A stretch of DNA of 64,000 bases from Candidatus Hydrogenedentota bacterium. GTDB lineage: Bacteria; Hydrogenedentota; Hydrogenedentia; Hydrogenedentales; Hydrogenedentaceae. Below are positions 32,024 to 63,117 of this stretch, one piece after another; positions within the stretch are counted from its first letter, which is position 1; every line of letters starts with the position of its first letter. The stretch lies in assembly GCA_026415215.1 (NCBI GenBank), contig JAOAHN010000063.1:778-64777 (forward strand), given 5' to 3'. The notes below the pieces were generated by a model, which saw nothing but the letters and a program-made list of their open reading frames with translations, did no database searches and was not told where the DNA came from. The position numbers were made by a program, and so were the translations under genes.

Positions 32024-34879
32024 TTACCGTGGTAGGCAGAATCCATCAATGTCAGCACTATTGTCTCCACAATCTCTCATATATCCACCGATATTGAAGA
32101 ATTGTATCAGTCTTAGTAACTCTGTAAGTTGGATTTTCCAATCCTGGGGACTGTAATCGCTCAAATGCGGTTTACACATTCTTAGGGACAGATCATCACC
32201 TGGCATATATCCATCCTCTGACTGACTCAAAGCACAGTGATAACCTCCAGCGTTGAAAAATTGAATAACTCTCAAGAGTTCACCAAGCTCAATCTTCCAA
32301 TTTCGATTAGTGTCCGCAGAGTGATATGGGGAATCCTCTCCTTCATCATCACCTTCAATACTCCCTTCTGAGACTCCTTCTATTTCACCTTCAAGTATTA
32401 TCTCTCCTTCTAAACCGCCCTCTGAGAGCCCTTCCGTATCACCTTCTACTTCACCTTCATTTACTCCCTCCTCAATCACACCTTCGGATGAACCTTCTTC
32501 GATCCCTTCAGTAGAACCTTCAATAACACCTTCCTCAACACCATCTACAGAACCTTCTATTTCGCCTTCAGATACTCCTTCAGTAACACCTTCAAAAACT
32601 CCTTCTGAGACACCTTCGGGTATTCCCTCGACAACACCCTCAGACACTCCTTCCATCACACCTTCGGAGATCCCTTCTCCTTCTTCATAGCCCTCTACAA
32701 TACCTTCACTCACACCTTCTTCAACAGATCCTTCCAAAGAACCTTCCGCTGTACCTTCTCCTTCTTGAACCATATACGGTTCAAAGTCATAACAATCCAA
32801 TACACCATTTTGATTCAAATCAACCGCATTTAATTGTTCTTGAGTAATGGAAGAATTTAATCCTTGCAGTTCATAAAGAATCAGAACCTCATCTCCATTA
32901 ATATCAATATCTGTGAACAGGTCATATATAACGCTTACTCTACTGAACTCACTTACACTTAATTGCCCGTCCCCATTAGTATCCACAAGATACCATCCTA
33001 ATAGCACTGTATCACTCCACCCAGTAATAGCCTTCAATTCATCCCTTGAAAGCAGTTTATTTCCATCTGTATCTCCAAACATCAAAAGGATATAATAATA
33101 ATGGACAATATCCGTTATATCACAAGGAGCCTCACCTCCATATACCCAACTATAATCCTCCGGACAAGGTGGGCATCCACCCCCGTCTGATGTCACATTG
33201 ATATCCAATGCAGAAGCCACAAATACATCATAATTCTGTGGAGATGTTACATGTGCTGTGTATTCACCCTTATTACAAACATTGTCAAAATCAGGATCAC
33301 CATCTGAGGCAAGATATTGGCCCGCAGTAGTGTCATATTCGTCGATAGTAAATGTTCCCCAGAAGTAAATGTAATCAATAATCTGAACTATTCTATTTAT
33401 GAAAGCTTTCTCGCCAGTGGTTAAGACACCAGCGATTACCGGAATGAATACCGAACTGGAAATAAACTGACCGATAAAAGGCAAAGAATTCCATTTAGTC
33501 TGGGCAGTTACTCTATTATTCATATAAGAATTCCTGACACAACAGAAAATTGGTAAATCAGGATGTGCAAGAATATAGTCTAACAATCTGGCTTGAGCAA
33601 CATCCGCTATTCCATTTTCGTCAATATCTGCGGTATCAGGATTAAGTCCTAACCAAGAAGCAAGGTTGTATAAGCTTCTTAGCGAGCTCTCAAACTGTGA
33701 ACTCACAGGGGAATTACTACATGTACTCCAACACCATTCAGCATAACAAGATTGGGGGAGCGGACCTATCAGATCCCAACAATCGAGATAGCCATTATCA
33801 TCTATATCTATTTCGTCAAATTTAGCCTGGGTTATCTTGCTACTCAACTGTCTTATCTCCGTCAAAGTTACTTTATTATCCCCGTCTGCATCTAAGTGTT
33901 GAGGTAATAAGCCACCTAAACGATTACTATCAACAAATTCTTGGTAGGACATATAGCCATCTCTATCTTTATCAATCAACCACCACCCCAACTCAAGTAA
34001 AATTCCATTAACGAACGCCTTTAGTTCATTCTTCGAAAGTTTTCCATCTGCATTGGTATCCCCGAAGAGCACAAGCAGAGCGAAGTAATTCTCATTAGAC
34101 CTCATATCACACTGGGGCCCCGGGGTTCCTTCTCCCTCACCAGTGCCCTCACCTTGCCCACAGTCAGGACAGCCCCCGTAATAGTCCCTTACATTAGGAT
34201 TTACTGCAGCGGATACAAAAGCATTAAAATCATCGGGTATCGTTAAAACCCAAGCTCTATACTCACCAATATTACAGACTCTATCAAGGTCAGCATCACC
34301 CTTAGCATTGAGATACACTATGTTTGAACCATCAAGCTCTAAGAGAGAAAGATCTGGCAAGTCAGGAATTATCCATTTTAACGCACTTAGTATCGTATTT
34401 ATGATTTCTTCATTTCCCATCGTTGCTAAAGCGGCAAAAAATGTCTTTAGATTTTCTAAATCAGGAGGCTCCCCAAGATAAGATGGCCAACCCGCATTAA
34501 TAGCCATAGCTAAAGCTTCGACCTTTACCCTATTCGCTACATAAGACCAATATATACAATTCCGAGTAGAAATCGCATTAAGAGGATTCATCTTCATTAT
34601 AGTGTCAAATAATCTTGCTTGAGCAACATCCTTCATTCCGTCAAAGTCAAGATCTAAGTTGTCCGGATTACCACCCAATAGAGGGATCTTCGTATACAGC
34701 TCACGCATCGAGTTTTCAAAACTCTCTGTATAAATTAGCCCAGGTATAATGTTATTACAAGGAGGAATATTACAATAATCTGGTTCTTGGGACTGCGAAT
34801 ATACATAGCCTAAATTAAACAAAATAAAAACTACTAATATATACATCACCCTGGGAGTATATGTAACACTTACTTTCAT
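32024..34879 (-). CDS. Large secreted Ca-binding repeat protein with multiple EF-hand/dockerin-like loops, two copies of a roughly 175-aa module, an acidic EG-repeat tract and a C-terminal twin ELLRVIQFFN module.
   Basis: Signal/TM leader. Canonical 12-residue loops DTNADGKLSKNE, DKDRDGYMSYQE, DADGDNKVTLTE, DTNGDGQLSVSE. An (EG[VIS]xEG)n tract of about 140 aa. C-terminal NWKIELGELLRVIQFFNAGGYHC … DWKIQLTELLRLIQFFNIGGY. Confidence 0.7.
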   Translation of the reverse strand: MKVSVTYTPRVMYILVVFILFNLGYVYSQSQEPDYCNIPPCNNIIPGLIYTESFENSMRELYTKIPLLGGNPDNLDLDFDGMKDVAQARLFDTIMKMNPLNAISTRNCIYWSYVANRVKVEALAMAINAGWPSYLGEPPDLENLKTFFAALATMGNEEIINTILSALKWIIPDLPDLSLLELDGSNIVYLNAKGDADLDRVCNIGEYRAWVLTIPDDFNAFVSAAVNPNVRDYYGGCPDCGQGEGTGEGEGTPGPQCDMRSNENYFALLVLFGDTNADGKLSKNELKAFVNGILLELGWWLIDKDRDGYMSYQEFVDSNRLGGLLPQHLDADGDNKVTLTEIRQLSSKITQAKFDEIDIDDNGYLDCWDLIGPLPQSCYAEWCWSTCSNSPVSSQFESSLRSLYNLASWLGLNPDTADIDENGIADVAQARLLDYILAHPDLPIFCCVRNSYMNNRVTAQTKWNSLPFIGQFISSSVFIPVIAGVLTTGEKAFINRIVQIIDYIYFWGTFTIDEYDTTAGQYLASDGDPDFDNVCNKGEYTAHVTSPQNYDVFVASALDINVTSDGGGCPPCPEDYSWVYGGEAPCDITDIVHYYYILLMFGDTDGNKLLSRDELKAITGWSDTVLLGWYLVDTNGDGQLSVSEFSRVSVIYDLFTDIDINGDEVLILYELQGLNSSITQEQLNAVDLNQNGVLDCYDFEPYMVQEGEGTAEGSLEGSVEEGVSEGIVEGYEEGEGISEGVMEGVSEGVVEGIPEGVSEGVFEGVTEGVSEGEIEGSVDGVEEGVIEGSTEGIEEGSSEGVIEEGVNEGEVEGDTEGLSEGGLEGEIILEGEIEGVSEGSIEGDDEGEDSPYHSADTNRNWKIELGELLRVIQFFNAGGYHCALSQSEDGYMPGDDLSLRMCKPHLSDYSPQDWKIQLTELLRLIQFFNIGGYMRDCGDNSADIDGFCLPR
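32330..32760 (-). repeat. Coding low-complexity tandem repeat (acidic EGVSEG-type tract) inside 32024..34879.
   Basis: Reiterated ccttc/accttc units in the DNA, translating to …EGVSEGIVEGYEEGEGISEGVMEGVSEGVVEGIPEGVSEGVFEGVTEGVSEGEIEG…. Confidence 0.7.
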
Positions 34880-56929: not shown

Positions 56930-58465
56930 ATGCCAGAAAAAAAGGAAAAAATTCTGGTAGTAGATGATGAACTAATAATCAGAGAGCTACTAACAGACCT
57001 ATTAACGGAAGAGGGTTTCGAAGTCATAACTGCTCCTGATGGAGAAGATGCATTACAGATAATAAAAGAGGACAAAGAAATTTCCATAATCTTTACTGAT
57101 ATATTGATGCACAGGATGGATGGTATCCAACTTATCCACAAGGCAAAAGAGATAAACCCAAACTTTGTTCCTATAATAATGACAGGCTATGCAACATTAG
57201 AGACGGCGAGAGCGGCTGTTAAAGAAGGAGCCTATGACTATGTTCTAAAACCTTTCAATATATCAGAAATAAAAACCGCTGTATACAATGCAATAGAGCG
57301 TCATAGATTAATCCTCGAAAACGCCCGACTAAAGGAAATTACCGAACTATTCAAAATCAGCGAGAATATATCTTCTATCAGAGATGAGGAACAACTGCTC
57401 CGATTCATATTAAACACTGCTTTAGAATATACAGAAGCAGAAAGGGGTTCAATATTAATAGTAACTGAGGATGGAAAACACCTTAAATTAGTAGCTGGAA
57501 CGGGGATTCCACAAGAATTGATAGGAAATGTGATTCCCATGAAGCCTACCTCCATTTCCGGAATAGTAGCGTTAAATATGGAACCGTTTTTTGTTGAGGA
57601 CATTGAATCCCAGCCTGAGATAAAAGAATACATCATAGGACTGAAAAATAAATCATTTATATCCGTTCCGTTAAAAAGGAAAAAAAGTGATTTTATAACT
57701 CATCATCCTCTAATGGATAACCCTTCAGATATTATTGCGGTATTGAATGTAACTGATAAGAGGAACAATGCTCCATTTACAGAGTCAGACCTTAAAGTGT
57801 TGAGAATCATAGGCAACCACGGCGCAGTTGCGATTGAGAATGCAAGGCTAATTAGGGAAATAGAATCTGCACAGAGAGAAATCGTGTTTACCTTGGGTGA
57901 GATAGTAGAAACTCGTTCCCGAGAAACAGGAAGCCATGTGAAAAGAGTCGCGGAGTATTCGAAAGTACTCGCATCCAAAATAGGCTTATCTCCTAAAGAG
58001 GCAGAGATTTTGAGATTAGCCGCTCCTCTTCACGATGTAGGTAAAGTGGGTATCCCTGATGCTATCCTAAATAAACCAGGCTCCCTAACCCCATCTGAAT
58101 TCGAAATAATTAAGACTCACACTATCATTGGACACGATATGCTTAAGAAAACAAAGGGTGTTGTTCTCCAGTCAGCAGCAATAATTGCTCTCGAACATCA
58201 CGAAAGATATGACGGAAACGGTTATCCTCAAGGTAAAAAAGGAAAGGAAATACACATATACGGAAGAATAGTAGGAATAACTGATGTGTTCGATGCTTTA
58301 GGTGTAGATAGAATATATAAAAAAGCATGGTCGCTTGAGGAAATTAAAGACTATTTCGCAGACCAAAGAGGCAAGCAGTTTGATCCTGAACTTGTAGATA
58401 TTTTCTTTGCAAACATAGAGGAAATACTCCAGATACGCGAACGCTTCCCTGAAAAACAACAATAA
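56930..58465 (+). CDS. Response regulator REC-GAF-HD-GYP (c-di-GMP phosphodiesterase, RpfG-like).
   Basis: Canonical receiver (ILVVDDE…IFTDILMHRMDG). A central GAF domain. An HD-GYP domain with HD…HHERYDGNGYP. Confidence 0.85.
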   Translation: MPEKKEKILVVDDELIIRELLTDLLTEEGFEVITAPDGEDALQIIKEDKEISIIFTDILMHRMDGIQLIHKAKEINPNFVPIIMTGYATLETARAAVKEGAYDYVLKPFNISEIKTAVYNAIERHRLILENARLKEITELFKISENISSIRDEEQLLRFILNTALEYTEAERGSILIVTEDGKHLKLVAGTGIPQELIGNVIPMKPTSISGIVALNMEPFFVEDIESQPEIKEYIIGLKNKSFISVPLKRKKSDFITHHPLMDNPSDIIAVLNVTDKRNNAPFTESDLKVLRIIGNHGAVAIENARLIREIESAQREIVFTLGEIVETRSRETGSHVKRVAEYSKVLASKIGLSPKEAEILRLAAPLHDVGKVGIPDAILNKPGSLTPSEFEIIKTHTIIGHDMLKKTKGVVLQSAAIIALEHHERYDGNGYPQGKKGKEIHIYGRIVGITDVFDALGVDRIYKKAWSLEEIKDYFADQRGKQFDPELVDIFFANIEEILQIRERFPEKQQ

Positions 58466-58473
58466 ATAGTATA

Positions 58474-61107
58474 CTAATACTCATACGCACCTATGTCGTA
58501 ATCAGATCCGTCCCCCCGTGGAGCTGAAATTCCGTCTCTACCTCTCATGTTATTCTCAATATCGAAAATCACGGAGCCCCACTCTTCACTACTGGTATCA
58601 AATCCCGCATCCACACACGGCGAACTACTGGAAAGCCTTAAGTTGCCACCTTGAGGAAAAACAAACAGAGGGTCTACTGAAATATTGCCTACCCCCTGCT
58701 TCTCTACCTGTAGATTACAATAATAGAATTCAGGTTCTCCTCCCAACGAATATACTCCAGCACCTGAATTTTCCCAAATTATAGTATTCCCAAATCTTAA
58801 ACCTCCGTAATAATTGAACACCGCCCCACCCTGAATATTTGAAAGCAGATCAGTCATATTCCCATAAAAGGTGCAGTTCGTAACGATTATATTTTCACAA
58901 AAATCGAGGTGAAGCCCCCCTGTTCGTTCAGTCGAGTAACTGAAATCATATGACTGGTTACGGAAAACAACCGAATTTATTAACTTGCCGGAGCTTCGTG
59001 TCAGGAATCCCATACCACCGCTTGCCCGAGAATAGCCTGGATGGTCATTAGTCGAAACCGAATTATTTCTAAACTCAGAACTTTCAATTCTGAAGCTTGA
59101 ATACCACAAATAAATAGCACCACCTAATGCTCTTGCTACCGCTCCATAGTAATTTCCATTTATCCGCCCATCACCTATCCCTTCTGCGGAGCATGAGTTT
59201 AGATAAAAATAACTATTTTCCAAAGATAATGATGAATTATAAGAGTAAATTGCGCCTCCGCCCGCTGTCGCATATACATTTCCTATCGAATTTTTCCATT
59301 CACACCGAGCGTTAGCCACATTTCTCTCAAATCTACACCTGACAAAATTCGCAACGCTATCAGATACATAAACCGCACCACCATAATTGTAAACAGAGGC
59401 TGTCCCATTCAGTTCAACCCTGTTTTCAATAAAATGGCAGTCATACGCTGATAGCTTTCCGCTCAGAATAGCTATCGCCCCTCCAGCTCCTTCTGCTTTA
59501 TTCTGGAAGAATTTGCAATTTCTAACAGTCATCCTCTTTCCAGGGATGTATAATCCCCCTCCGTCCGAAGCGTCTAAGTATATACCATTAAATCGGGCAA
59601 TACCCCCCTTAATAACGAAACCATCTATCTCACAATAATTATCCCCTAATAAAACATGCCACGCTGGTTCACCTGCTCGAGATTTGCTCCCATCGATGAC
59701 TGTTACATTCGTATTAAAGTTCCTTTGGGATAAACTAATCTCATTTCCACTAAAACCACCATATAATTTAACAAGTTCTCTTAGGACAAGTGCCCCGTAG
59801 GGATTATTTCTCACTTCGTCGTAAATACCACCTGCAACCCAAACTTCTCCTCCACCTAACTCATAAGCCTTATTTATCCCCTCCTGAATTGTAGTATAAG
59901 CAGAATCCCAAGTTAATCCATCTGGTTCAACTTCTTTATTTACATTACTTTTCTTAACATGTATTCTCACGCCCTCATGTATTTCAATGTAATTCTCTCT
60001 AACTATGGTATCTGTGCCAGCAGTAGTAGTCACACTTAATCTTACGGTGTAAACTCCAGGCTGAGTATATATATGAACTGGATCTCTCTGAACACTAAAA
60101 GAACCATCCCCAAAATTCCAAAGCCACTGGGGATCTGTTCCGTTTCCTAACCTACTTTCATCGGTAAACTCCACTTCCGTACCTACTAGAGTCCTGGTTG
60201 GCGATGCGGAAAAATTTGCTTTAGGGGGATAAGGCAAAGCACTATATATCCTAATCCAACCTGCCAATATGCTCAAAGGATACAAAATCCCCTGAGGGTA
60301 TGTGGTTGATAATATATTTTCACTATACAAAGAGTATATATCTCCGAAGTCTACTTCCTCAGATATGTGAAATCTAATAGCCATAAGAAGCCCTGAGGAC
60401 ATTCCAGTTGTAGAGGTACCAGAAATAACAACTCTCAACCTCCCAGGTACTATCTGGGAAACTGTTAAACTCCTACCTGTATTAAATATGACAAGCCCAG
60501 GAATAGACTCTACATAATTTAGTTTTCTATGGTTGTAGAGTAAATCAAACTGAATAGAATCGAGGAAAACATCTTTTGTATCTAATGTAAACGGGACAGA
60601 CACATCAGAATTAGGAACTGCATCTTTTCTATCAATAACCACTCTTGCATATTGATATACTTCCCCCTCTCCCTCAGGTGAGCCTTCCAATTCTCCTTCT
60701 TCATTATTAGGGGGGCATAGAATAGGTCTGAAGCCATCTTCAGTCCCTGAGTATGGCTCGTAACCACAAGAATTATAAAATTGTATTAGTCTCAAAATCT
60801 CATTAAGAGTAATACGCCACTTATTATTTTCCTCAAAATCACTGTCATGAGGTTCACAACTCTGATCACCCGGCCCGGGGTTATACCCATCTTCCCCATT
60901 GGGGTCACAATGATAACTCTTTACATTATAGAATTGAATTACTCTAAGAAGTTCAGATAAATTTATTTTCCCATCTCTATCTTTATCAGCCGAATGATAT
61001 TCGGTTTGGTCTGTATATCCATAAATACTAATTACTATAAAAAAAATAAAAACAAACAATATACACTTTTTTCCTCTACTACTCATTTTGTTTTCCTTTA
61101 TCAGCAT
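58474..61107 (-). CDS. Secreted protein with an N-terminal dockerin/EF-hand twin module, a PKD domain and a right-handed parallel beta-helix (pectate-lyase fold).
   Basis: Signal/TM. DKDRDGKINLSELLRVIQFYN … NKWRITLNEILRLIQFYNSCGY. PKD WNFGDGSF…HIYTQPGVYTVRLSV. PbH1-like repeats (NCKFFQNKAEGAGGAIAI, GGAVYVSDSVANFVRCRFERN, GGAIYSYNSSLSLENSYF). Confidence 0.7.
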   Translation of the reverse strand: MLIKENKMSSRGKKCILFVFIFFIVISIYGYTDQTEYHSADKDRDGKINLSELLRVIQFYNVKSYHCDPNGEDGYNPGPGDQSCEPHDSDFEENNKWRITLNEILRLIQFYNSCGYEPYSGTEDGFRPILCPPNNEEGELEGSPEGEGEVYQYARVVIDRKDAVPNSDVSVPFTLDTKDVFLDSIQFDLLYNHRKLNYVESIPGLVIFNTGRSLTVSQIVPGRLRVVISGTSTTGMSSGLLMAIRFHISEEVDFGDIYSLYSENILSTTYPQGILYPLSILAGWIRIYSALPYPPKANFSASPTRTLVGTEVEFTDESRLGNGTDPQWLWNFGDGSFSVQRDPVHIYTQPGVYTVRLSVTTTAGTDTIVRENYIEIHEGVRIHVKKSNVNKEVEPDGLTWDSAYTTIQEGINKAYELGGGEVWVAGGIYDEVRNNPYGALVLRELVKLYGGFSGNEISLSQRNFNTNVTVIDGSKSRAGEPAWHVLLGDNYCEIDGFVIKGGIARFNGIYLDASDGGGLYIPGKRMTVRNCKFFQNKAEGAGGAIAILSGKLSAYDCHFIENRVELNGTASVYNYGGAVYVSDSVANFVRCRFERNVANARCEWKNSIGNVYATAGGGAIYSYNSSLSLENSYFYLNSCSAEGIGDGRINGNYYGAVARALGGAIYLWYSSFRIESSEFRNNSVSTNDHPGYSRASGGMGFLTRSSGKLINSVVFRNQSYDFSYSTERTGGLHLDFCENIIVTNCTFYGNMTDLLSNIQGGAVFNYYGGLRFGNTIIWENSGAGVYSLGGEPEFYYCNLQVEKQGVGNISVDPLFVFPQGGNLRLSSSSPCVDAGFDTSSEEWGSVIFDIENNMRGRDGISAPRGDGSDYDIGAYEY

Positions 61108-61110
61108 CTC

Positions 61111-63117
61111 TCAACGGGAATTACACCCACACTTCACTCCCGTAATGTTTTTTAGGTACTCTTCTAATTCTTCACGGGAGATTTTTCCATCTCTATCTTT
61201 ATCTATCTCGAGCAATAAGTCTATAGGAATTTGAGGATACCTTTCAACTACCTCTTCGTAGCTTAAATACCCATCACCATCTATATCGCAATAAGAAAAT
61301 GTAGACCACAGCAAAAGAGCAAAATTTCTCTTCTCTTTCTCCGTTAGAGCTACTGATTTTTTATAAGACACATCCAAAGCCAAACGACTGGCAAAGGGAA
61401 TGTATACCTTAAGCGACTGGGGTTTTATATAGCCATCTACATCTGTAAATTCTATCTCTACCCACCCCATCTCAAGGATTACCACTTCCTTAGAATTTCT
61501 CCATAATTCAAATCCTTTAGGTCTCCACTTGGCCCCTTTATTCACTGCATCCGGTGGAAATATGCTAACCATTAACTCACCAACTTTTATAAAGGTCTCT
61601 ACCACAACCTTGTTCTCACCCGAATCAATTTCTACATCTATATAATCATTTTTAAAATCCAAATACCGAGAATAAACCCATCCCTGAGGTTGATAAAAGA
61701 AAACTCTATAAACCCCAGCTGACAATCCCGTTACACTCTCTCCACTGGAACGCCAAGCCTCATCCCCCTCAATCTTCCATTGGGCCCCACTAATCACGGC
61801 CTCCTCTGGTTCAATAATAACGGTAAGAGAAGCAAAAACTTCATCTTCTCCCTCTCCTTCTATTATTCCTTCACCTTCTCCCTCGAGAATACCCTCTAAC
61901 ACACCTTCTCCCTCATACGGAGACTCACCCTCACCACACCATACACAACCACCACCATCACTGAACTCTTCAACACTCAACACCCTCCTCTTATAGCCTT
62001 CCAAACCCTCACTCGAATCCATCGCATATCTATACTCACCTAAATTACACACCCCATCCATATCAGCATCACCATACATACTCAACCAACACGAACTACT
62101 CACATTAAATAAAGCCATATTCGGCAACGGCACCTCCAATGGCAATTCATCTATCATACCCACCAACATCTCCACTGTAGACCTTTCTCCAACCGTCATT
62201 ATCCCTGCCACTACTCTCTCAAACCTCGCACGATCCACTATCAAAAATATCACCGGTTGGCTCGCCGCTATCTCATCTGCATATAACTTCGCGCTATCCA
62301 AATTAACTACATAAGTAGCTACAACACAACAATATATTCCCATATCCCACCTACTCAATACACCATCAAGTATCCACGCCTGAGCTACATCCAGCACCCT
62401 ATTGCCATCCAAATCCGCTTTATCCGGGTCCTCTCCAAATAACTCGTAAAACCACCTCAAATCAGATTCAAAACTACTACTCACCTCCCCACTATTACAA
62501 CCAACCTCAAGACAATTATCTATATTACAAGGATCAAACCAAAATCCTCCCTCTCCTTCTCCTTCTGCAACACCCTCTCCCTCCTGTGTCCCCTCAATAC
62601 CTCCCTCATTCACACCTTCCCCCGATCCTTCAGAAGAATCGCAGACACAAACTAAGTTTGCAACAACTGATTCAGTAGTTATATTAGGTCCATCAGTACG
62701 ATACATACCGTATGAAGTCACTGCCAAAGGAGAAGTATATCCTTCTTCTACATTTATCTTGAAAGAAAATTTAAAAGGAAAATTAGGTATGAATATCCAG
62801 GCAAACTCAAATCTTCCTCTTGTTCCCCCAGACGGATAAATAGGTGGGAGTGCACCGGAAACTAACGATACAAAGCTACACTGCTGAGGAACTTCCGTCA
62901 CCAATCCAAGGGCAGTAACAGTGCTTGAACCAGTATATATAAATTCTACCTCCACTACTAAATCTTTGCCAGGTGTGTACTTATTACCGTTAGAAATATA
63001 CCCTTCCCCACCTATAGTCTGTGAAATTTTTAAATCTGTTTCAGCGAAACTCCAAATCGAGAAAAACAACACCACGAATAGGAAAACCAACACAAATTTT
63101 TCATATATACTATACAC
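61111..63117 (-). CDS. Secreted paralogous Ca-binding repeat protein with one copy of the 175-aa module, EG tracts, a repeated beta-rich domain and a C-terminal EF-hand pair. It lies 3 nt upstream of 58474..61107 on the same strand.
   Basis: Leader peptide. SFESDLRWFYELFGEDPDKADLDGNRVLDVAQAWILD … DADMDGVCNLGEYRY … GGGCVWCGEGE. C-terminal DIDGDGYLSYEE and DKDRDGKISREE canonical EF-hand loops. Confidence 0.65.
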   Translation of the reverse strand: MYSIYEKFVLVFLFVVLFFSIWSFAETDLKISQTIGGEGYISNGNKYTPGKDLVVEVEFIYTGSSTVTALGLVTEVPQQCSFVSLVSGALPPIYPSGGTRGRFEFAWIFIPNFPFKFSFKINVEEGYTSPLAVTSYGMYRTDGPNITTESVVANLVCVCDSSEGSGEGVNEGGIEGTQEGEGVAEGEGEGGFWFDPCNIDNCLEVGCNSGEVSSSFESDLRWFYELFGEDPDKADLDGNRVLDVAQAWILDGVLSRWDMGIYCCVVATYVVNLDSAKLYADEIAASQPVIFLIVDRARFERVVAGIMTVGERSTVEMLVGMIDELPLEVPLPNMALFNVSSSCWLSMYGDADMDGVCNLGEYRYAMDSSEGLEGYKRRVLSVEEFSDGGGCVWCGEGESPYEGEGVLEGILEGEGEGIIEGEGEDEVFASLTVIIEPEEAVISGAQWKIEGDEAWRSSGESVTGLSAGVYRVFFYQPQGWVYSRYLDFKNDYIDVEIDSGENKVVVETFIKVGELMVSIFPPDAVNKGAKWRPKGFELWRNSKEVVILEMGWVEIEFTDVDGYIKPQSLKVYIPFASRLALDVSYKKSVALTEKEKRNFALLLWSTFSYCDIDGDGYLSYEEVVERYPQIPIDLLLEIDKDRDGKISREELEEYLKNITGVKCGCNSR

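Follow-up and report, generated by a model that had tools for sequence, protein, structure and literature searches.

A candidate dockerin-like docking module borne in dozens of copies by Hydrogenedentota genomes

Two large secreted proteins of 877 and 951 amino acids (aa) are encoded in a 64-kb stretch of DNA (64,000 nucleotides, 37% G+C; hereafter the window) from a Candidatus Hydrogenedentota bacterium (contig JAOAHN010000063.1), and they share a twin-helix segment that lies directly behind the signal peptide of the former and at the exact C-terminus of the latter. The question raised by this locus is what kind of module can occupy opposite ends of two proteins, and what it does there. Our analysis demonstrated a module family with definable boundaries, an internal duplication, a confidently predicted fold, portability between termini, and expansion within genomes; it also showed that the module occurs together with cohesins and takes a position equivalent to that of dockerins. 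We consider it probable (roughly 60%) that the module is an undescribed dockerin-like docking domain, which is probably Ca-dependent and most likely binds a cohesin.

The two proteins correspond to the open reading frames (ORFs) 58474..61107(-) and 32024..34879(-), and the peptides quoted from them in an earlier sequence-only reading of this DNA were accurate. The 877-aa protein continues after its signal peptide with YHSADKDRDGKINLSELLRVIQFYNVKSYHCDPNGEDGYNPGPGDQSCEPHDSDFEENNKWRITLNEILRLIQFYNSCGYEPYSGTEDGFRPILC, and the homologous stretch forms the end of the 951-aa protein. When these module segments were compared by BLASTP using composition-based statistics, 44 of 82 residues were identical (54%, E 5e-27), and repeat 1 of one copy matched repeat 2 of the other (E 5e-8). 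This cross-match indicates that the module is an internal duplication. The observation of that reading that both repeats are conserved in an N-terminal and a C-terminal setting is confirmed. A six-frame motif scan over all of the window located the helix motif exactly four times, confined to these two ORFs. The similarity of the two copies is genuine and not compositional; the pairwise alignment suggested as a check gave no sign of low complexity, and that explanation was rejected because the E value holds under the composition-based statistics.

The extent of the module was determined from homologue sequences and a profile of 309 distinct copies, which gave a unit of ~95–100 aa composed of two ~50-aa repeats. 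Each repeat runs from a Ca-type loop through a helix (LSELLRVIQF[FY]N) into a β-hairpin (GYHC…TEDGY.PG). The length of roughly 75 aa given in the sequence-only reading fell short, as the second hairpin (…GTEDGF.P) after helix 2 was missed; its interval 60765..60996 covers aa 38–115 only of a unit that occupies aa 37–131, or 60715..60999(-). The consensus of repeat A is H-[ST]-A-D-x-[ND]-x-[DN]-x-x-I-x-L-S-E-L-L-R-V-I-Q-F-[FY]-N-S-G-G-[YF]-H-C-x-x-G-T-E-D-G-Y-x-P-G-x-G-x-x-x-C, and that of repeat B is x-P-H-x-S-D-Y-N-P-Q-D-W-x-I-x-L-S-E-L-L-R-[LV]-I-Q-F-[FY]-N-S-G-G-Y-…-T-E-D-G-F-C-P-G. Loop A (D-x-[ND]-x-[DN]-x-x-I-x-x-x-E) is of the 12-residue EF-hand/dockerin type with Glu at position 12, and loop B is one residue longer (13) and retains D (100%), D/N (98%), W (98%), and E (99%). 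Polar residues of the helix and hairpin are also kept in the profile (R 98–99%, Q 95–97%, N 93–94%). The two Cys flanking hairpin 1, whose conservation had been noticed in the window pair, are present in 98–99% of the 309 distinct family members, so that a disulfide probably pins this hairpin. From such conservation patterns we infer both the binding of Ca and the formation of disulfides.

A model of the module was constructed with AlphaFold2 from a 75-sequence alignment and was of high predicted quality, with a predicted local distance difference test (pLDDT) of 95.9 and a predicted template modelling score (pTM) of 0.84. DSSP placed the helices of this model at residues 15–27 and 66–76, with each half arranged as loop, helix, and two-stranded hairpin, and found no helix ahead of either loop, which is the tandem of Ca-loop and helix (F-hand) that characterizes a dockerin. 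The hairpin in the model indicates that the Cys-containing segment, formerly described as a linker of roughly 35 residues, is instead folded and comprises a β-hairpin and the first part of repeat B. Dockerins were the best and almost the sole structural neighbours in the fold comparison, and the Foldseek list consisted mostly of dockerins and EF-hands, none of them significant. The predicted structure may thus be described as a dockerin core of two F-hands embedded in a larger domain, a resemblance that is consistent but weak.

An exhaustive profile search retrieved 3043 representatives of 50%-identity clusters at E<=1e-3, and 1564 at E<=1e-30; the matches of a first homologue search had been 132 short proteins or fragments, none of them annotated by Pfam in the module region. 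In a genome scan that represented each species by a single genome, over 590 stretches matched at the least, and the figures for loci given here refer to the best 80. Among these, 44 were labelled Hydrogenedentota, Hydrogenedentes, or Hydrogenedentales, 29 carried the unverified label ‘uncultured Nitrospirales’, and the rest included a ‘delta proteobacterium’. These 80 loci derive from a small number of metagenome-assembled genomes (MAGs), a single one of which contributed 24, and three others 14, 13, and 9. The clusters are mostly from Hydrogenedentota MAGs, in which dozens of module copies occur per genome. Further source names were Kiritimatiellae and Vecturithrix, with Candidatus Buchananbacteria as the origin of a divergent tandem version. 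The Nitrospirales-labelled MAGs CAYYRW01, CAYXPO01, and CAZMVU01 accounted for 14, 13, and 2 of the best 80 loci; either the module was expanded there too, or the label is wrong and the bins belong to relatives of Hydrogenedentota. The exact window protein is absent from the public gene index. Its closest orthologue among the best 80 loci was found at locus L001, with 68% identity in the best tblastn segment over the module query.

The position of the module in its carriers was examined in the 150 best representatives, where 122 of 160 copies (~76%) end within 12 residues of the C-terminus and 14 directly follow a signal peptide, at a junction where …AxA meets Q[YF]HSAD. The remaining 24 are internal or tandem, mostly in proteins containing 2–4 copies. 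Passengers are diverse and mostly non-catalytic, comprising InlB-B-repeat-like, PKD, right-handed β-helix, leucine-rich repeat (LRR), CHRD, FG-GAP, Ig-like, EF-hand, and cohesin domains, and no carbohydrate-active enzymes were found among the carriers examined. Long Glu/Gly linkers usually lie between passenger and module, and many relatives have (EG)n linkers ahead of the module; as many database matches are fragments at contig ends, such (EG)n runs probably break assemblies. This placement, the diversity of passengers, and the cassette position described below support the portable docking or anchoring module that had been anticipated from the window pair.

Two divergent groups were also noted in the family. 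The fragments P0104, P0109, and P0119 represent a Cys-free variant with an altered post-helix segment (LSELLRVIELFNxRxGTVRTGxY…EDGF), both halves of which start with YH[ST]AD, which suggests a sister subfamily. P0128, P0131, P0133, and P0146 are low-complexity proteins with divergent tandem arrays of 2–3 modules; the first three carry a C-terminal membrane anchor, and P0146 derives from Candidatus Buchananbacteria. Their loops, hairpins, and Cys are retained and their helix sequence is variable, the pattern that one would predict for helices that determine binding specificity.

The 877-aa protein contains, next to its module, a segment that was identified as a cohesin. Scanned alone, this segment scored 25.0 bits against Pfam Cohesin (PF00963), above the gathering cut-off of 24.1 (E 2.3e-5); the cohesin was absent from the scan of the whole protein, and the segment is accordingly regarded as a borderline family member that passes the threshold. 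The equivalent cohesins of orthologues gave clearer Pfam matches (3e-15 for L064 and 1.3e-7 for L003), and a local jackhmmer profile provided further evidence for the domain. Used on its own as a query, the window cohesin retrieved no homologues, and an alignment of 14 cohesin sequences retrieved solely a conserved family of ~270-aa proteins, which consist of signal peptide, cohesin, and module. Cohesin domains were detected by Pfam in 5 of 51 carrier proteins, and at locus L078 the gene next to a module gene encodes a membrane-anchored protein that contains two cohesins.

Cohesins of the window-protein subgroup served as seeds for a metagenome scan that returned 79 loci, in which the cassette [dockerin][dockerin][cohesin-MODULE][cohesin-TM][cohesin-TM], where TM denotes a transmembrane anchor, recurs at L019, L082, L093, L095, L096, and L108. 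Its cohesin-MODULE protein of ~263–286 aa is followed by a cohesin-linker-TM protein of ~400–470 aa and a cohesin-TM protein of ~220–310 aa, the last gene being cut off at the end of the short contig of L108. Upstream, where the contig reaches, lie one or two genes that encode a classical dockerin at the N-terminus of their product; the small form of ~170–200 aa occurs in L019, L082, and L096, and the large form of ~440–525 aa is present in all six but L108. A 163-aa ORF of L093 contains dockerin-type repeats by direct reading and was not listed by the local model. In the homologous cassettes L097 and L098, the third cohesin protein ends in a Pfam Dockerin_1 domain in place of the module, while in L085 and L086 it ends in a TM anchor; six cohesin-dockerin proteins scored 26–36 bits for Dockerin_1 against the cut-off of 22.9. 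Module, Dockerin_1, and TM anchor thus alternate in the cassette according to lineage, which makes the module positionally interchangeable with both. Such interchange is the strongest evidence that the module may be an attachment device of the dockerin kind. No conserved cassette was present in the neighbourhoods of two cohesin-plus-module genes (P0267 and P0275) and of L031, indicating that the cassette is not universal. As a further observation, tightly packed cassettes, as at L093 6050..10715(+), are found also at L019, L082, L095–L098, L085–L091, and L108, in metagenomes of several lineages. We found no description of this dockerin/cohesin cassette in the literature.

Membership of known families was evaluated by scans of the window proteins and family members, in which no model of Pfam (2025) or NCBIfam (2026) covered the module, and PDB searches with a single sequence or a profile returned weak EF-hand loop matches only (E>=0.02). 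Dockerin_1 (PF00404) gave no match on either window protein at E<=1, and jackhmmer started from the C. thermocellum CelS/CelD dockerins did not reach the module among 4114 ORFs of the loci. EF-hand_6 on loop A of the window scored 24.0 bits against a cut-off of 25, with a permissive match (E<=10) in 45 of 75 members; this sub-threshold loop A, the lack of an entering helix, and the non-canonical loop B place the module outside the EF-hand families (PF00036/PF13405/PF13499), and hhalign of the module profile against calmodulin gave a probability of 9%. Literature searches by motif, by Hydrogenedentes with dockerin or cohesin, and by noncellulosomal cohesin-dockerin found no description of the module. 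It is a large family without an entry in Pfam, NCBIfam, or PDB. As it fails the sequence membership of dockerins and EF-hands, and differs in size, hairpins, Cys, and second loop, the module is classed as a variant and not as a member. The earlier description as dockerin-like but atypical is supported, with the caveat that membership of the dockerin family by sequence profile fails.

The type I dockerin (PF00404), exemplified by Cel48S (2MTE) and Xyn10B (1OHZ_B/2CCL_B) of C. thermocellum and Cel5A of C. cellulolyticum (2VN5_B), shares with the module a duplicated loop-helix F-hand, in which an EF-hand-type acidic loop lacks the entering helix and near-identical helices create an internal two-fold symmetry. 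Both have a terminal position in secreted proteins of several domains, from which a flexible linker separates them, and both have numerous carriers in a genome; both co-occur with cohesins and hold the same position after the cohesin in homologous cassettes. The module is, however, longer, with hairpins, conserved Cys, and a different second loop. An EF-hand pair (EF-hand_1/5/6/7, calmodulin-like) is resembled in the fit of loop A to D-x-D/N-x-D/N-G-x-I-x-x-x-E and in the two loops per domain, whereas the module has no entering helices, a non-canonical loop B, extra hairpins and Cys, and an extracellular, terminal context. Adaptor scaffoldins of cellulosomes carry both cohesin and dockerin (PMC4959524). 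The 877-aa protein and the ~270-aa family similarly join socket and plug in one chain, although the plug is a new module here and no carbohydrate-active enzymes were found among the carriers examined.

These comparisons suggest how the module could work. It would form an F-hand pair, in which a Ca-binding-type loop without entering helix is followed by an amphipathic helix and a β-hairpin pinned by a probable disulfide. Joined by flexible Glu/Gly linkers to secreted proteins, either at the N-terminus of the mature chain or at the very C-terminus, it would plug its carriers non-covalently into a receptor domain of another protein, most likely a cohesin. Passengers such as β-helix, PKD, LRR, Ig-like, and EF-hand arrays would in this way be exposed on the cell surface or assembled there. 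Having both module and cohesin, the 877-aa protein would serve as an adaptor in this scheme, with the 951-aa protein in the role of a cargo. We infer the identity of the partner from circumstantial co-occurrence and positional replacement. A wider picture is more tentative, and we hold it as a possibility only: the module might be the plug of an undescribed surface-assembly system of phylum scale, with membrane-anchored cohesin scaffolds, dozens of adhesin-like proteins per cell, and its own cohesin-dockerin specificity, or alternatively with a new non-cohesin receptor. The same picture would make it a non-cellulolytic counterpart of the cellulosome in Hydrogenedentota, sparser in Kiritimatiellia and candidate-phyla-radiation bacteria.

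Several results weigh against a cohesin-binding, dockerin-like domain. Few cohesins were seen in ~800 kb of module-rich loci in comparison with ~98 module-bearing ORFs, and those of the cassettes could be filled by the classical dockerins encoded in the same cassettes. When module, linker, and cohesin were modelled together by AlphaFold, the module was predicted with a pLDDT of ~95 and the cohesin, which had a shallow alignment, with less than 50 (pTM 0.48), a result that speaks neither for nor against docking. Loop B deviates from the canonical 12-residue Ca loop. Dockerin_1 matches stayed below threshold and occurred in no more than 6 of 75 members (best E value 0.019), and hhalign against four PDB-verified dockerins aligned 16 loop columns with a probability of 16%. 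As the dockerin profile comparisons align the Ca loop alone, the likeness to dockerins may reflect either common descent or convergence from EF-hand-type loops.

The scarcity of cohesins relative to modules would be accommodated if the module anchored its carriers to an envelope constituent other than protein (lipopolysaccharide, capsule, exopolysaccharide, or the glycan of an S-layer, for instance), in the manner of surface-layer homology (SLH) domains or other wall-binding modules. Terminal, linker-attached placement and dozens of carriers per genome agree with such an anchor, and the cassette alternation with a TM anchor as well as a dockerin points to an attachment device whose receptor it leaves unnamed. 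We nevertheless regard it as unlikely, since the structural neighbours, weak as the resemblance is, are almost only protein-binding dockerins, no carbohydrate-binding or SLH family matched the module in the Pfam and NCBIfam scans, and the module recurs fused to or beside cohesins. That the best, albeit sub-threshold, sequence matches on loop A were EF-hand models, and that both window proteins and a neighbour are rich in ordinary EF-hands, would also fit a Ca-binding pair of EF-hand type without a dedicated partner, whose role would be to stabilize the secreted protein or to regulate it, by sensing Ca or by helping it to fold. This appears improbable to us: neither loop has an entering helix, the conservation of helix and hairpin across thousands of paralogues exceeds what Ca ligation needs, terminal placement on long flexible linkers suits a handle better than a regulator, and the module replaces a dockerin or TM anchor in the cassette.

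A quite improbable variant of docking is a homotypic one, in which modules associate with each other and cross-link their carriers into a surface lattice. The nearly identical helices of the two repeats and the tandem arrays of 2–4 modules, some with a C-terminal membrane anchor (P0124, P0128, P0131, P0133, P0146), could be interpreted in this way, but most carriers have a single copy, and this reading gives no account of the association with cohesins. The location of about three quarters of the copies within 12 residues of the C-terminus recalls a secretion or sorting signal that is removed or covalently processed, of the type IX secretion system (T9SS) C-terminal domain or PEP-CTERM/exosortase type. 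Such an explanation is highly implausible and was rejected, as some copies start the mature chain behind a Sec signal peptide, the 877-aa protein being an example, and others have internal and tandem positions. Neither Pfam nor NCBIfam, which we take to hold sorting-domain models, matched the module to a T9SS C-terminal domain, PEP-CTERM, GlyGly-CTERM, LPXTG, or any other sorting domain; identity with a known signal or sorting domain had been named in the sequence-only reading as an outcome that would refute it. The 951-aa protein ends in …DGFCLPR, with no TM segment and no hydrophobic or basic tail after the module, and the T9SS C-terminal domain is a β-sandwich, whereas the predicted fold of the module is helical and dockerin-like.

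If the module is indeed a working docking domain, it would define its own structural class of dockerin-like plug, in which hairpins and probably disulfides brace the fold and the helix is very uniform. Its scale, with thousands of variants and dozens per genome, would be one seldom reported outside cellulosome-producing bacteria. Hydrogenedentota is a candidate phylum without cultured members, and very little has been learned of its surface biology; a docking function would explain the organization of many of its large ‘hypothetical’ secreted proteins, as well as possibly yielding small orthogonal, Ca-switchable affinity pairs for designer scaffolds. The module would provide an annotation handle for more than 3000 protein clusters without a domain in this region, and even a mere Ca-binding stabilizer would be a new domain family meriting a database entry.

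The features of the two window proteins are collected in Table 1. The 877-aa protein is ordered as signal peptide, module, E/G linker, cohesin, PKD, and β-helix; in its passenger part, choice_anch_Q matched below threshold. This architecture is kept in five orthologues (L001, L002, L003, L023, L064) with very different linker lengths. The long linker of the 951-aa protein is composed of Glu, Gly, Val, and Ser in degenerate (E-G-x-x) units.

Table 1. Positions in the window of the two module copies and of the other parts of the proteins that carry them.
Feature	Coordinates	Strand	Remarks
Module copy 1	60715..60999	-	aa 37–131 of the 877-aa protein, directly after the signal peptide: YHSADKDRDGKINLSELLRVIQFYNVKSYHCDPNGEDGYNPGPGDQSC / EPHDSDFEENNKWRITLNEILRLIQFYNSCGYEPYSGTEDGFRPILC
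Repeat A, copy 1	60856..60999	-	near-canonical 12-residue loop DKDRDGKINLSE; hairpin YHC…YNP; Cys67/Cys84
Helix of repeat A, copy 1	60922..60960	-	LSELLRVIQFYNV
Repeat B, copy 1	60715..60855	-	degenerate 13-residue loop (family consensus D-Y-N-P-Q-D-W-x-I-x-L-S-E); second hairpin GYEP…FRPI
Helix of repeat B, copy 1	60775..60807	-	LNEILRLIQFY
Module copy 2	32027..32326	-	aa 852–951 of the 951-aa protein, exact C-terminus
Repeat A, copy 2	32174..32326	-	
Repeat B, copy 2	32027..32173	-	
Signal peptide, 877-aa protein	61018..61107	-	MLIKENKMSSRGKKCILFVFIFFIVISIYG, read from the sequence; relatives have junctions of AxA with Q[YF]HSAD
Short E/G-rich linker, module copy 1 to cohesin	60661..60714	-	length highly variable among orthologues
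Cohesin domain, 877-aa protein	60220..60660	-	aa ~150–296; candidate socket for such modules
Passenger part, 877-aa protein	58474..60228	-	PKD and right-handed β-helix region; DIGAYEY tail
PKD domain	59989..60228	-	PKD_4, 5.1e-16
Glu/Gly-rich flexible linker, 951-aa protein	32327..32773	-	149 aa with 45 E and 37 G; precedes copy 2
Passenger part, 951-aa protein	32774..34879	-	signal peptide, two ~200-aa Cys-containing domains, EF-hand pairs

The gene directly upstream of the 877-aa gene, 61111..63117(-), lies on the same strand after a gap of 3 nucleotides. Its product has EF-hand pairs and E/G-rich linkers as in the 951-aa protein, but is devoid of the module. The two products also have in common a ~200-aa Cys-containing domain (CNSGEVSSSFESDLR…DADMDGVCNLGEYR…GGGC; 35% identity, E 9e-30), which no Pfam family covers. 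The convergent neighbour of the 877-aa gene, 56930..58465(+), appears to encode a response-regulator/GAF/HD-domain protein, judging from its sequence and from family counts over the window. The remainder of the window is ordinary chromosomal DNA, with genes for PGI, sigma-54, a GH2 β-galactosidase, a Clp-type AAA protein, and oxidoreductases.

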